Part shown: positions 2,966 through 37,250 of the stretch, one piece after another
Numbering within the stretch: the first letter of the stretch is position 1
How the letters are laid out: each line of letters begins with the position of its first letter
DNA from: a virus
Reading direction: 5' to 3' (one strand)
DNA length: 64,000 bases
IMG/VR virus record: IMGVR_UViG_3300033233_000004
Location: 107,837-171,836 of that record
The notes under the pieces: model-generated
Database searches by the model: none
What the model was told of the DNA's origin: nothing
What the model saw: only the letters and a program-made list of their open reading frames with translations
Position numbers and translations under genes: made by a program

Positions 2966-4816
2966 TTACACTTTTTTCCTGTAATGCGGACGAACTTTTC
3001 GATACGATTCTTGTTCAGGGTCGAGTCCTTGTTTACGCAGACGATTTGCATACGTATCAAGATTATGTGCAAATGATGTCTTAGTTAACGAAGACGTTGT
3101 TTGCATCTGTGGTACTACTGCGGCTTGAGTAATCTTACCATCAGTACTTACTTCTGATGCAACACCTTCTGTATCAACATTCTTGTTATCTGGTTTACGA
3201 ACAGCTTCATGAGTATTTGCAAGAATACCTTGTTCTACTTCTTCATTATCAGGAATACGAGCTTCTTTCAAAGCCGCTTCATTGACGATTGGCATAGACT
3301 CAATAAGTTCTTTCTGTGCTGCGAACTTAGCTTCGTCATATTCGACAACCTTACGAGCATACTCTGCAATAGCCGTCTTTGTAAACTTCACAATACCACG
3401 GCTTGCTGCCAAACGAGAGAAGTCAACTGCTACGCGAGCTTTTGCCCTGCGTATTTCAACTGAAGCTTCCGTCTTTGGCTTACCAGAACCAACTGAATCT
3501 GCATCATTACCACCAGTCAAACCACCCTCTACATCGTTTGCCGACTCTTCCTCTGGCTTGTAGTTAATGTTCATATCAACACCACTCTTGGTACCTGCAT
3601 TTGCAGCAGCATCATTGATACCTGCGCCAAGATTAGCACCAGTCTTCTGACTTGATGTTAATGCTTTTGCAAACTCTGCATCACCAAATGCATCTTTGTA
3701 ATATGCACGAAGTTTTGCTTTGTCCTTTACCTTTGGTTCGCGTTCTGCCGTTGCTTCCAAACCAATAGTATCAACTTCTGCATTCAAATATGCTGCAACA
3801 GCCTCGATACCATTCTTTCTAATATGATTTACAACATTCTGTGAGAATGCTGGACTTGTGAAAATAGCATAATTTTCTGCGGTCTTATCACCAACTGCTT
3901 TTGCCAATTTATCCCACGTTACAACAGCGTACTTACCTTGTTTGTCCTTGTTCAATGCACGAAGAACAAGAGCCGAACCAAATACATTGTTCTTGTTAAC
4001 AACCTTGGCATTAACATATGCACCGAATTCATGTGGGTTACCTTCATCAGTCAAACGAGGTTCAGCAGCAGCATTTGGAAGAGCATCTTCCTTTGCCTTG
4101 TTTGTATGGAATTCTGCATTACCTGCTTCGTAGTGTTTGATTTCTTTTTTTGCGGAGTAGTTAATGTCTCCATTAATACCCTTATCACCACTAAACTCTG
4201 CACCTGTTGGTGGAACTGCGGTACCAAATACTGTACCAAGTTCTGACCATGCTTGTTTTGCTTCTTTCACGTTCTGAACAACTGCATGAAGAGGGGAGTT
4301 ATTGGAAACTTTAGTTGATGTTGATTTTCGTTTCAAAAGAAAAGCCCAATGACGAATTGCTCCACGAGCATCCTCAACTGCGGAAATAGCTTGCTGTGTC
4401 AAAAGACCAATTTCGTTTTGTGCCTTTGCACTCAAACGGAAAGTCTTACTTGAAGTCTTTTGTTCCATATCAGCACCTTGGTCGGTAATGTTGTCGATAC
4501 CCTCAACAACAGCCTTAAGGTCTGTGATAGCTTCATTAACAGTCTTCTTCGCCTCTTCAGGAGTCTTGATCTCAGGAACTTTTTCTTTACCTTCTTCTGT
4601 ACCTGCTGGTGCACCAATTTCACTACCACCTGTCATGTCAACACCACCAAGATTTGCACTATCTTCATTGGACATATCGCCTGTACCTGCACCTGTAAAG
4701 GATTCAGGCGTATCATTAGATAGTTTGTTAATTAAATACTGTGCGCTCTTTTTGACAGAAGCAAGTTCAGTCAACATTTCACGCAGACTCTGGTTAACCT
4801 GTGCAGTTGAAATCAT
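2966..4816 (-). CDS. Putative capsid scaffolding/inner head protein
   Basis: Long Ala/Lys/Glu-rich helical protein upstream of capsid genes; likely start MISTAQ at 4816. Confidence 0.55.
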   Translation of the reverse strand: MISTAQVNQSLREMLTELASVKKSAQYLINKLSNDTPESFTGAGTGDMSNEDSANLGGVDMTGGSEIGAPAGTEEGKEKVPEIKTPEEAKKTVNEAITDLKAVVEGIDNITDQGADMEQKTSSKTFRLSAKAQNEIGLLTQQAISAVEDARGAIRHWAFLLKRKSTSTKVSNNSPLHAVVQNVKEAKQAWSELGTVFGTAVPPTGAEFSGDKGINGDINYSAKKEIKHYEAGNAEFHTNKAKEDALPNAAAEPRLTDEGNPHEFGAYVNAKVVNKNNVFGSALVLRALNKDKQGKYAVVTWDKLAKAVGDKTAENYAIFTSPAFSQNVVNHIRKNGIEAVAAYLNAEVDTIGLEATAEREPKVKDKAKLRAYYKDAFGDAEFAKALTSSQKTGANLGAGINDAAANAGTKSGVDMNINYKPEEESANDVEGGLTGGNDADSVGSGKPKTEASVEIRRAKARVAVDFSRLAASRGIVKFTKTAIAEYARKVVEYDEAKFAAQKELIESMPIVNEAALKEARIPDNEEVEQGILANTHEAVRKPDNKNVDTEGVASEVSTDGKITQAAVVPQMQTTSSLTKTSFAHNLDTYANRLRKQGLDPEQESYRKVRPHYRKKV

Positions 4817-34430: not shown

Positions 34431-35021
34431 TCACTCTGTCGTATTTGAATTGTGTTCGCCACTTTGTTGTTGCTCTCCATTTGTAGTGCCGCAAGCAGCC
34501 ATCTTGCGCTCGTAGTAGTGGAGAGACTTATTAATCTTACGAATAGCCGTCTCTGCTCTCTTTGCTTTTGTGAACCATCGTTTCTTTCGGTCATACAACT
34601 GGATGATCTTAGCTTCGTCGGTTCTTTCTTTCGGTTTTGGCTCTTGTCGGAATCGCAAAAAGAAGCCACGCACATACTCAACATTGAACGTCTCATCCTT
34701 TGCCATGTCACCATGCTTCAGTCCACGGCAATGACACAACTCATGCAAGAGCGTTCTCGCTATGTTCATTGCCGGGTCATCATCTTTCCGGCACGAGTGA
34801 ACTCGGTCTGCATCCTTCGATATTTTGAGAACAACCACCCCACTATTATAATAGGCATAACCGCCACAAAAGCCATCCCGCACTCGTCGGTAAATACAGG
34901 TGATGCTAACCCGCTCCGGCTTCGTGTGAGTTCTCCAATATTCTTTCATCACGGTGGAGACGATACGCCGGATGTCCCTGTTCTGATACTTTGTCTTATT
35001 GTAAATTGCGATTCGGCTCAT
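34431..35021 (-). CDS. Zincin/SprT-like metalloprotease
   Basis: TLLHELCH...HG; AGGAG RBS before MSRIAI. Confidence 0.65.
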   Translation of the reverse strand: MSRIAIYNKTKYQNRDIRRIVSTVMKEYWRTHTKPERVSITCIYRRVRDGFCGGYAYYNSGVVVLKISKDADRVHSCRKDDDPAMNIARTLLHELCHCRGLKHGDMAKDETFNVEYVRGFFLRFRQEPKPKERTDEAKIIQLYDRKKRWFTKAKRAETAIRKINKSLHYYERKMAACGTTNGEQQQSGEHNSNTTE

Positions 35022-35273
35022 TGCTTGGCTCTCCTTTCTTGGCTCGGACACCGTGTCCTTGCATACTACAATATAACACATGACATTTTTGTCGTTCACT
35101 CGGTTGCGATTCTGTTCTGTGTTCGCAAGTCAACACGGTCTAAGTCATTACGCATCGGTCAATAATTCTGTCAAGAGCGTTTCCCGAATTGCGCTCGATC
35201 TCGTTTGGAAGTTGCCGATTGCCGCTCACGCTCACAAGAAAATTTATTTTCAAGAGCCTGATTCCTGTTCCGA

Positions 35274-35507
35274 CTGTCATCTCATACACACGTGCGAGTT
35301 GCAACGGGGAATCATGAATCAAATCAGAATCTCAGCAAACTGTCATCTCATACACACGTGCGAGTTGCAACATCTGACCGAGCCGTAAGATGTTGATCGC
35401 AGCATTCCTGTCATCTCATACACACGTGCGAGTTGCAACACGAACACTCTCTTCTATGAGGATGATTACCACAAGCTGTCATCTCATACACACGTGCGAG
35501 TTGCAAC
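35274..35507. CRISPR. CRISPR mini-array: 4 identical 32-nt repeats, 3 spacers (34, 36, 36 nt)
   Basis: CTGTCATCTCATACACACGTGCGAGTTGCAAC at 35274, 35340, 35408, 35476. Confidence 0.95.
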
Positions 35508-35533
35508 CACTATACAAATCTGTCAACACCAGT

Positions 35534-36814
35534 CTATACAATCTGTATAGCTTCCGCTAACCCAAACTTTTGAGACCCTTCTGACTCGATACACCCGTCA
35601 GTCGGTGAGACGAACGTCTCTTTACAGGCTTGCGCCTGTTGGCTCTGACCGAGCCTTAAGATGTTAATAGCAGCATTCAAATCTCGATTTATTTCAAGCC
35701 CACATTCGCATGTATATATTCGTTCCGCTAACGTCTTCTTTTGCACACGACCACACTGTGAACATGTACTTGTTGTTCCTGCTGCTTTTACTTTCACAAA
35801 GACCCTACCAGCTTCTTCCGCTTTGTAGGCAATCTGATTCAAAAACTGTGACCAACCAGCATCAGCAATAGACTTATTCAATCCGTTCGGTAAACTTGAT
35901 TTTGGCTTACATCGCTTAGACATTGTTTTTACGTTCAAATCTTCAACAGCAATCAACCCATACTGATTTACAAGCGTTCGAGACAATTTATGGTGAAAAT
36001 CTGCTCGTTGTCTACGAATCTTGGTATGTAAAGCAACAACTCGTTTTTTAGCGTTTTGACGACGATTAGAGCCTTTGGCCTTGCGACTCAAACTTTGTTG
36101 TGCTTCGGTTAGCGCAACCGCCGCCTTACGATACCAACGAGGGTTTTCTATTGCCTGTCCAGTAGATAACATAGCAAAGGTGTTCAAACCAACATCAATA
36201 CCGACTTGTTTGTCGGTATTAGGTAATCTTTGACAAGGTACATTATTACAAGAAAATACAACATACCACTCATTTGCTTCTCGTTTGATTATTGTAGTCT
36301 TGATTGTCCCAAGAATACTGCGGTCTATCTTGACACGAACAAGACCAATGTTCAAGAATCTTACAACGAATCTACCACTTGGGAGCTTCACAAGTTTACA
36401 ACCAGAACCGTATGTTGGATACACAAGACTATCCCATCTATCTCGTCCTTTGAATCGAGGAAAACCTGCGGCTTTACCTGCACCTACTTGTACACGTTTC
36501 TCGAATGCCTTGTAAGCCTTATGTAGACGGTCTAATACCGCATTACAAGTTTGTGCTGGTACTTGACCAAGACCAGCAGGGTCAGAAATACGGGCTTCTG
36601 GATAAAATCTCATCTGGTCATACGCAGTAAGCGATGATACAGAAGACGTATATTTCTTTTTGTTCTCATTCCAAAACTTGGGTGTAGACTTGTACTGATG
36701 TATACGCTGTTCCAACGCAGCATTATACAGAGACCGAGTTGCATTCAATTGTAACTCAAGTTTCTGAATTTGAACCTTGTTAGGATACAAACGATATTTA
36801 AATGATTTACGCAT
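35534..36814 (-). CDS. tnpB: TnpB-like RNA-guided RuvC nuclease, CRISPR-adjacent (candidate miniature type V effector)
   Basis: KYRLYP HTH start, GFPRFK, RuvC-I GIDVG, RuvC-II VEDL, Zn ribbon CSQC/CEC, RuvC-III RDLNAAINI; 26 nt from the array. Confidence 0.92.
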   Translation of the reverse strand: MRKSFKYRLYPNKVQIQKLELQLNATRSLYNAALEQRIHQYKSTPKFWNENKKKYTSSVSSLTAYDQMRFYPEARISDPAGLGQVPAQTCNAVLDRLHKAYKAFEKRVQVGAGKAAGFPRFKGRDRWDSLVYPTYGSGCKLVKLPSGRFVVRFLNIGLVRVKIDRSILGTIKTTIIKREANEWYVVFSCNNVPCQRLPNTDKQVGIDVGLNTFAMLSTGQAIENPRWYRKAAVALTEAQQSLSRKAKGSNRRQNAKKRVVALHTKIRRQRADFHHKLSRTLVNQYGLIAVEDLNVKTMSKRCKPKSSLPNGLNKSIADAGWSQFLNQIAYKAEEAGRVFVKVKAAGTTSTCSQCGRVQKKTLAERIYTCECGLEINRDLNAAINILRLGQSQQAQACKETFVSPTDGCIESEGSQKFGLAEAIQIV

Positions 36815-36824
36815 AGTACAAGTC

Positions 36825-37250
36825 CTAAATCATAAGTACGTCTATACTGACTTGATACGCCAGTACTGTATGTTGATTGTAATATTGTTTCGTGAATTTG
36901 GCAATCTTAATAATATCTTCTCTGGAACAACTAATACGCACTGGTATCATTGGCTCAACAATAAGAGTTTTTGTTTGTGGATGTATCCAAGTACCTTTGG
37001 CTGTTTTGAGTAATGTCATTCCTTCTGAAAGTGAATAAACGAAATCATCCCATTGTTGATGGTAAGAAACTGAAATTTCATTACCATCCTTATCATTTGC
37101 TGGTACCAAAATCTCCCACATCATTACAGGAATAGATGGCAATTCAAAAAAAGCACGCGCATGACGAATACGATCTTGTTCTGCAAAAAGAGTATGCACT
37201 AACAAACTGCCATTACTAAGCCGTTGTTTTAAACATTTAAAACTACTCAT
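36825..37250 (-). CDS. Hypothetical phage protein
   Basis: WEILVP...GTW...EPMIPVRI. Confidence 0.65.
   Translation of the reverse strand: MSSFKCLKQRLSNGSLLVHTLFAEQDRIRHARAFFELPSIPVMMWEILVPANDKDGNEISVSYHQQWDDFVYSLSEGMTLLKTAKGTWIHPQTKTLIVEPMIPVRISCSREDIIKIAKFTKQYYNQHTVLAYQVSIDVLMI

Follow-up and report, generated by a model that had tools for sequence, protein, structure and literature searches.

TranC (transposon-CRISPR intermediates) are TnpB-like nucleases with CRISPR arrays (Jin et al., Cell 2025;188:6283, via PMC13565253 and bioRxiv 10.64898/2026.03.27.714800), which arose repeatedly from the TnpBs of IS605 and IS607 insertion sequences (IS) (PMC13565253; PMC13639567). Clade 3 of TranC is TnpB-sized, with a median repeat of 32 bp and 3–20 repeats (bioRxiv 10.64898/2026.03.27.714800). 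CauTranC9, of 414 aa, is phage-borne and has spacers that match phages (bioRxiv 10.64898/2026.03.27.714800). Here we describe a related arrangement in a 64,000-nt stretch of viral DNA (the window), bases 107837–171836 of the 171,836-bp IMG/VR virus record IMGVR_UViG_3300033233_000004, which has direct terminal repeats and is rated complete. A tnpB gene, encoding the 426-aa protein P0001, is followed on the same strand by a CRISPR mini-array.

The likeness to TranC comprises a TnpB-sized RuvC nuclease without domain expansions beside a short array, the lack of adaptation genes, an RNA scaffold that overlaps or follows the 3′ end of the open reading frame (ORF), occurrence in a phage and a likely role in mobile-element conflict. 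The phage locus differs in that the split omegaRNA, consisting of tracrRNA (the trans-activating CRISPR RNA) with an anti-repeat plus a CRISPR RNA (crRNA), was not found there. It also differs in that P0001 falls among IS-borne TnpBs, seemingly keeping both transposon ends, and in that its repeat is of the Cas12f1 family and is not visibly derived from the RNA end of its own gene. Sequence comparison with TranC was limited to the LaTranC reference, which is a weaker match to P0001 than ISDra2 TnpB.

We tentatively favour, at a little under an even chance, reading the locus as a minimal, TranC-like type V system that is carried by a phage and still very early in its development, with the TnpB using the array against rival elements. 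The sequence shows the anatomy of the locus, the direction and family of the repeats, an intact nuclease, a structured RNA and a spacer match; binding of these crRNAs by P0001, and cutting, is inferred. The kind of system is already known, since TranC, including one from a phage, have been published. What sets this locus apart is the combination of a TnpB of the transposon clade with its ends seemingly retained, a Cas12f1-family repeat lacking an anti-repeat, and a spacer directed at a synonymous variant of the adjacent gene.

The array, its repeat family and its spacers

The sequence-only reading of this DNA had described four identical 32-nt repeats with 34–36-nt spacers, separated by 26 nt from the end of a TnpB-like ORF, and the coordinates bear this out. 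The repeats lie at 35274–35305, 35340–35371, 35408–35439 and 35476–35507, and the gap between array and tnpB stop codon at 35508–35533 (26 nt). In order of transcription the spacers occupy 35440–35475 (36 nt), 35372–35407 (36 nt) and 35306–35339 (34 nt), and all are different. By the definition used here, at least three near-identical direct repeats of 23–55 nt with unique spacers of similar length, this is a CRISPR array. On the minus strand each repeat reads GTTGCAAC...GATGACAG, and the 171,836-bp genome holds no additional copies of the repeat elsewhere. The identity of all four repeats counts against a long decay of the array.

Searches of IMG/VR, 185,579 species genomes and the metagenomes of the Joint Genome Institute (JGI) gave no exact copy of the repeat. 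A looser scan, asking for GTTGCAAC three times at intervals, recovered many arrays, among which those with 32-nt repeats and 33–37-nt spacers resemble the phage array far more closely than the others. The highest identity, 25 of 32 positions, is to the repeat of a Ruminococcus metagenome-assembled genome (MAG; locus L082), and the first 17 nt equal those of the L141 repeat. At eight such loci (L022, L028, L036, L070, L075, L082, L093 and L141) a gene for a protein of about 415–440 aa has the array directly downstream, and the L082 product matches AsCas12f1 structures with an E value of about 1e-115. Over the 24 nt that follow GTTGCAAC, the phage repeat is identical to the eight Cas12f1 repeats at 12–17 positions, and the latter are identical to one another at 8–19. 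Because the 32-nt set adjoins AsCas12f1-like genes, we assign the phage repeat on sequence grounds to the AsCas12f1-like type V-F1 repeat family, and not to type I, a host type I match being among the outcomes that the sequence-only reading had named as refuting its proposal.

The phage locus shares the geometry of the eight Cas12f1 loci, with the gene first, then an RNA region whose start lies within the ORF 3′ end, and then an array that begins with GTTGCAAC. The likeness to type V-F1 AsCas12f1 (PDB 8j12 and 7wju; the eight loci) thus covers the 32-nt repeat, the length of the spacers, which equals that in Cas12f1 arrays and supports the favoured reading, and the order and polarity of the parts; neither has adjacent cas1, cas2 or cas4 genes. 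By a rough estimate, the chance of an unrelated array lying at most 30 nt downstream of either tnpB of the phage with the same polarity is well under 1%.

The repeat starts with GTTGCAAC in the direction of the gene in the eight Cas12f1 loci and in a further, TnpB-bearing locus (L134), and the decayed repeat is the gene-distal one in L028, L036, L070 and L134. From this polarity and gene-distal decay, the phage array is read on the minus strand, GTTGCAAC first and co-directional with tnpB. Of the two orientations that had earlier been left side by side, it is thus the one allowing co-transcription with the gene that is borne out.

At L134 and L139, TnpB-like genes adjoin arrays of the repeat family. 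L134, a MAG contig (CALAOR010000068.1, 6100–7765), encodes a 462-aa TnpB (IS200_TnpB, 370 bits), with a terminator-like hairpin and a T-run between this gene and an array of 3–4 repeats. Within 6 kb of it cas genes are lacking, and a conjugative element is suggested by a weak match to a type IV secretion system pilin nearby. L139, a JGI contig (Ga0134093_1005664), holds within 6.7 kb an IscB gene, a Cas12f1 tracrRNA remnant (CTTAAATCGAGAAAGTG, at 4371–4388), a V-F1-type array and, after the array, a 404-aa TnpB-like gene, an assembly of OMEGA elements clustered around an orphan array.

Spacer 2 matches tnpB at 35643–35678 in 32 of 36 positions, within the RuvC-III codons of the gene, with mismatches at guide positions 10, 13, 23 and 36, the last base. 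None of the three internal mismatches (GCT/GCG, ATT/ATC and AGG/CGG) changes an amino acid, and spacer and gene both encode NAAINILRLGQ, which indicates that spacer 2 was acquired from a homologous, coding tnpB. The 5′ flank of the protospacer on the minus strand is TTT (35681–35679), like the protospacer-adjacent motifs (PAMs) of type V systems or the transposon-adjacent motifs of TnpBs. Spacers 1 and 3 have no match in the phage's own genome at the nucleotide or peptide level, and neither exact spacer 2 nor the 22-nt ends of spacers 1 and 3 were found in IMG/VR. A search of the array against GenBank phages gave one chance-level match and otherwise none, and the spacers of 1285 repeat units from the recovered arrays gave only chance matches of 15–21 nt to the phage.

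Read on the plus strand with GTTGCAAC as 3′ handle, the array could instead belong to a host system of class 1 (type I or III), which we regard as very improbable. In favour of this, the repeat contains a weak hairpin with 7 nt to either side of it, and GTTGCAAC is similar to handles of the ATTGAAAC type. Yet the 37-nt class-1-type repeats recovered by the looser scan, mostly from cyanobacteria and Chloroflexi, have GTTGCAAC as their 5′ start and ATTGAAAC as their 3′ end, and the repeats closest to that of the phage all adjoin Cas12f1 or TnpB-like genes. The plus-strand reading also gives the protospacer a 5′ flank of TTGG/TGGC, and we know of no common 5′ PAM of this form. Nor does this flank fit the NTTR motif of AsCas12f1 (PMC11246509).

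P0001, its putative transposon ends and the RNA before the array

P0001 contains the Pfam domains HTH_OrfB_IS605, OrfB_IS605 and Cas12f1-like_TNB and scores 289 bits against the NCBIfam model guided_TnpB (NF040570, cut-off 100). The three RuvC acidic residues and the zinc ribbon, noted as intact from the letters alone, hold up on alignment with ISDra2 TnpB. The acidic residues of its motifs GVDVG, GTEHL and DRDENAA (D191, E278 and D361, numbered from that alignment) correspond to D207, E291 and D378 of P0001, and the cysteines of the CxxC...CxC ribbon align as well. The AlphaFold2 model of P0001 (predicted local distance difference test score of 86; residues 401–426, below about 50, predicted to be disordered) is closest in fold to ISDra2 and ISFba1 TnpB (8h1j, 8exa and 8iaz) and shows no extra domains. 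A sequence search of the PDB returned ISDra2 TnpB at 1e-44, LaTranC at 2e-20 and AsCas12f at 1e-10 to 1e-12, and the BLASTP alignment with the L082 protein was limited to about 130 C-terminal residues, at 32% identity. Judged by domains, motifs and predicted fold, P0001 is an ordinary IS605-type TnpB and not a Cas12f1.

Several observations on the ancestry of the nuclease, its ends and the adjoining RNA weigh against a coupling of P0001 to the array. A maximum-likelihood tree nests P0001 in the transposon-TnpB clade (98/95), distant from the Cas12f1 clade, so that the phylogeny called for by the sequence-only reading speaks for TnpB and against a placement with Cas12f; the repeat family belongs to an effector clade other than that of P0001. 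The top homologs, 47–50% identical, are IS-borne and arrayless. That reading had asked whether homologs keep the array, which these do not, and had itself counted closest homologs in intact IS elements without arrays as evidence against it. No protein more than 50% identical to P0001 was found among 5.8 billion proteins, nor any closer relative in IMG/VR, so that no close relative shows conservation of the nuclease–array pairing. The TTT motif, moreover, comes from a single protospacer (n = 1).

We compared the tnpB element with IS200/IS605 TnpBs (ISDra2, PDB 8bf8 and 8h1j; L136–L138), with which it shares domains, catalytic triad, fold, the tnpB-only layout, structured RNA across the ORF 3′ end and, apparently, matching end hairpins. 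Among the IS relatives of P0001, one adjoins Y1 TnpA, one is wedged between guaA and dnaE, and two further ones leave 44 and about 160 nt up to the following gene. In the IS-borne relatives one and the same hairpin occurs at the left and at the right end, the latter stopping at ...GGAGTCGTCAC. The 3′ region of the phage tnpB aligns with this region, and its AAGGGTCTCA tail ends at about 35571, the position homologous to the right end of the relatives. The predicted right end thus falls inside the ORF, which extends about 12 codons beyond it, and 63 nt before the array. Upstream, the hairpin ACTGGCGTATCAAGTCAG matches that of the right end at 15 of 18 positions, a score equalled by about 2% of shuffles or genomic tiles (P ~0.02), and is located where the relatives carry their left-end hairpin. 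Both transposon ends therefore seem, from these alignments, to be retained, a further point against the coupling. The phage gene differs from IS200/IS605 TnpBs in having a CRISPR array no more than 26 nt from its stop codon, in overrunning the predicted right end, and in that one spacer of the array targets a variant of the gene.

The gene does start 10 nt after the upstream ORF, as had been stated from the sequence alone; since the left-end-like hairpin lies inside the 3′ end of that ORF, the attached claim that no room remains for an IS left end fails. The proposal of a type V-like system finds support in the geometry, the co-oriented array and the lack of adaptation genes, and its description as domesticated does not, with a right end that aligns with those of transposon relatives. 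The absence of tnpA, cas1, cas2 and cas4, first noted for the window, extends to the whole phage genome, in which profile searches gave no match to Y1 TnpA (PF01797), Cas1, Cas2 or Cas4. Non-autonomous elements with tnpB only are common, and a tnpB without TnpA is still compatible with IS200/IS605 membership.

The 158 nt between the RuvC-III codons and the array have a minimum free energy of −54.2 kcal/mol (z −3.77; 0 of 200 shuffles as stable), and the 5′ part aligns with the corresponding region of the IS-borne relatives. Folding so far beyond that of the shuffles fits an omegaRNA-like scaffold overlapping the 3′ end of tnpB, as which we presume this region to act. In the Cas12f1 loci, the tracr region of 160–320 nt starts inside the 3′ end of the ORF and finishes with an anti-repeat lying against the first repeat, in agreement with published AsCas12f1 biology (PMC8548392; PMC11246509). 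The best predicted duplex lies directly before the array in L082, L028 and L093, and cofolding pairs this position in L082 and L141. In contrast, the phage locus has the 26-nt gap, and the last ~27 nt before the array, which pair with the repeat in the Cas12f1 loci, do not do so here.

Searches for an anti-repeat at the phage locus added to the points against the coupling. Complementarity of 10-mers between repeat and scaffold was no better than with shuffled repeats, and duplex-energy scans and cofolding gave nothing local above shuffled controls; the duplex z-score method failed on positive controls too, leaving the position of the best duplex alone as informative. A search for Cas12f1 tracrRNA homology, using nhmmer with a hidden Markov model of the eight tracr regions, gave 0 matches in 34–38 kb, and Rfam gave nothing meaningful over 35000–37000. 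The earlier idea of a TnpB-to-Cas12 intermediate has a precedent in TranC, and so is not new, and lacks the anti-repeat and tracrRNA. For several TranC clades tracrRNAs were likewise not found (bioRxiv 10.64898/2026.03.27.714800), and the absence of an anti-repeat is thus not decisive. We also considered whether the repeat derives from the RNA end of the gene itself and rejected the evidence for it, the local similarity of ACGTGTGTAT-GAG to ACGGGTGTATCGAG reaching only z ~1.9 against genome tiles.

In the AsCas12f1-like loci, a tracr stem lies inside the 3′ end of the ORF (GGTGCGAA...GGTTCGCAC). In those checked (L028, L082, L093 and L141) the anti-repeat directly abuts the first repeat, with ...TTTTGCY in three of them; a read-through transcript of such loci would thus look like a single guide of natural origin, with the first spacer.

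These results bear on a rival account, in which an IS605-type tnpB element sits beside a fragment of a V-F1 array as an uncoupled passenger, and the TnpB is a transposon nuclease with its own omegaRNA guide. The two may have been captured jointly from a bacterial locus in which such elements lie near arrays, or the IS may have inserted next to a pre-existing array. We consider this unlikely, though by no means far-fetched. TnpB-like genes adjoin such arrays in looser layouts (L134 and L139), the predicted right end stops short of the array, no anti-repeat was found, and the GC content of the array is 0.47 vs 0.41 for tnpB, a difference that again counts against the coupling. Against the account stand the perfect identity of the four repeats, the co-orientation of the array so close to the stop codon, a spacer matching the tnpB family with three internal mismatches that are all synonymous, and the match of GTGTTGACAG, before the array, to the end of the repeat. 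The last of these is a weak lead; GTGTTGACAG ends 12 nt before the first repeat and has a rough chance estimate of ~0.02–0.03 within this small region.

The phage genome and its likely host

No DNA-level relatives of the phage genome were found among GenBank phages. A C-terminal sorting domain of the type IX secretion system (TIGR04183, 44 bits) occurs in a phage ORF outside the window (G000:C1:5786-6013, L142), and this domain suggests a host in the group of Bacteroidota, Ignavibacteria and Chlorobi (FCB group). Cas12f-like matches (E <= 1e-25) were found in 2 of the 401 genomes sampled from the phylum of the L106-bearing Chlorobium genome, and the sole array-bearing one of the two has a different repeat. 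The rarity of Cas12f in the likely host phylum supports the favoured reading. In one genome of the sampled phylum, a 485-aa Cas12f-like gene is accompanied by a 9-repeat array (L143, G086:C21:54242-58186), whose repeat family differs, reading GCTGGAAG...GCTGAAAC in the direction of the gene.

Viruses reportedly carry cas-less mini-arrays that use host effectors (Medvedeva et al. 2019; Faure et al. 2019). The phage locus resembles these in being a short viral array without adaptation genes and with a spacer against a related mobile-element gene, and differs in that a candidate effector lies beside the array and that a host with the same repeat was not found in the genomes searched. By analogy, the mini-array could feed crRNAs to a host Cas12f1 and its tracrRNA against rival elements, with tnpB as an ordinary non-autonomous IS alongside. 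This would account for the repeat lying inside the AsCas12f1-like family (as seen with L082 and L141), for the absence of an anti-repeat and tracrRNA from the phage, both of which the host could supply, and for P0001 being a transposon-clade TnpB with end hairpins. We nevertheless find it distinctly unlikely, because two coincidences would be needed, in the position and polarity of gene, RNA and array and in a spacer that matches the adjacent gene. Neither the species genomes nor the JGI metagenomes hold the identical repeat. The sorting domain points to an FCB host; the Cas12f1 loci with such repeats recovered here come mainly from Clostridia MAGs of gut or rumen, the others being from one Eggerthellaceae and from one metagenome contig that is unassigned, and Cas12f-like genes are as scarce in the sampled phylum as stated above. 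No further cas gene or Cas12f was found in the phage genome.

The features of the locus are collected in Table 1. The promoter-like site agrees with 9 of 12 consensus positions and was called on the consensus match alone. The downstream product P0121 has a perfect HExxHxxGxxH zinc motif and a weak archaemetzincin match; the GC content of its gene (0.467) is close to that of the array (0.47) and of the region 35022–35273 (0.46), the phage average being 0.39. No syntenic relatives were found via the flanking exonuclease and the 141-aa ORF.

Table 1 Positions within the window of the array, tnpB and neighbouring features
Feature	Position	Strand	Remarks
Downstream ORF P0121, 196 aa	34431..35021	-	HExxHxxGxxH metzincin motif
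CRISPR mini-array	35274..35507	-	4 identical 32-nt repeats, 3 spacers
Structured RNA region, presumed omegaRNA/tracr-like scaffold	35508..35665	-	four consecutive hairpins
Promoter-like site TAGACT-16-TATAGT	35509..35536	-	ends 2 nt before first repeat
GTGTTGACAG	35520..35529	-	8/10 match to last 10 nt of repeat (GAGATGACAG)
tnpB, 426 aa (P0001)	35534..36814	-	RuvC triad (D207/E291/D378) and zinc ribbon both intact
Right-end-like hairpin core ACGGGTGTATCGAGTCAG (35598-35581) and tail AAGGGTCTCA	35571..35598	-	alignment with relatives, boundary inferred
Near-cognate protospacer of spacer 2 in tnpB	35643..35681, including 5′ flank	-	codons NAAINILRLGQ
Upstream ORF P0122, 141 aa	36825..37250	-	no family match; last codons overlap left-end-like hairpin
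Left-end-like hairpin ACTGGCGTATCAAGTCAG	36847..36864	-	15/18 identical to right-end hairpin

The phage has a second TnpB, of 403 aa and 34% identical to P0001, encoded outside the window (G000:C1:81839-82885; L014:1375-2586, minus strand). It lies in a typical tnpB-only IS with end hairpins that match each other, and groups in the tree with the array-adjacent TnpB of L134 (support 99/98). A 671-aa ribonucleotide reductase of the phage (window 42193–44208, minus strand) is 44–45% identical to enzymes of Actinomycetia and Mycobacterium phages, whose genes are annotated as ribonucleoside-triphosphate or ribonucleotide reductase; the class II enzyme is uninformative on the host.

Proposed mechanism and implications

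In the reading that we favour, a TnpB still embedded in recognisable IS605-type ends would be co-transcribed with a structured omegaRNA- or tracrRNA-like RNA and the co-oriented four-repeat array, the repeat family of which would descend from Cas12f1 (V-F1) arrays. For this reading speak the type V geometry and polarity, a repeat family of TnpB-derived effectors, the intact nuclease with its plain TnpB fold, the structured RNA, the T-rich flank, the spacer against the gene's own family, the identity of the four repeats, the lack of any other effector in the phage and the TranC precedent. The repeat–spacer RNAs would lead the nuclease to sites in rival mobile elements at which the DNA carries a T-rich 5′ motif, and spacer 2 would be aimed at a variant allele of tnpB itself. 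The phage's own tnpB copy would be spared through the mismatches at guide positions 10 and 13, and any new spacers would require Cas1–Cas2 of the host.

A bolder version, which we think improbable, is that the module acts as an RNA-guided allelic drive, with spacer 2 programming the TnpB against rival tnpB alleles in co-infecting phages. The cut would fall 136–171 nt away from the array, synonymous changes at guide positions 10 and 13 would protect the resident allele, and repair from the resident genome would copy tnpB and array into the rival. Marker exclusion by homing endonucleases in T4-like phages is an analogue, from which such a drive would differ in that a CRISPR array taken over from Cas12f1 systems would make it programmable.

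If the array serves a host Cas12f1 instead, the locus would be a virus-borne mini-array for a type V-F system, of which we know of no reported case. If the TnpB uses the array, the locus would show the change of TnpB into Cas12 at its earliest visible stage, with a protein that has not left its transposon clade or lost its ends and that is paired, in the absence of an obvious anti-repeat, with repeats of a different TnpB-derived lineage, Cas12f1. This would suggest that arrays may be borrowed and not grown from the guide RNA of the nuclease itself, and would yield a further candidate programmable nuclease, of 426 aa. The spacer against a variant of the adjoining gene offers a direct handle on the conflict of element versus element.

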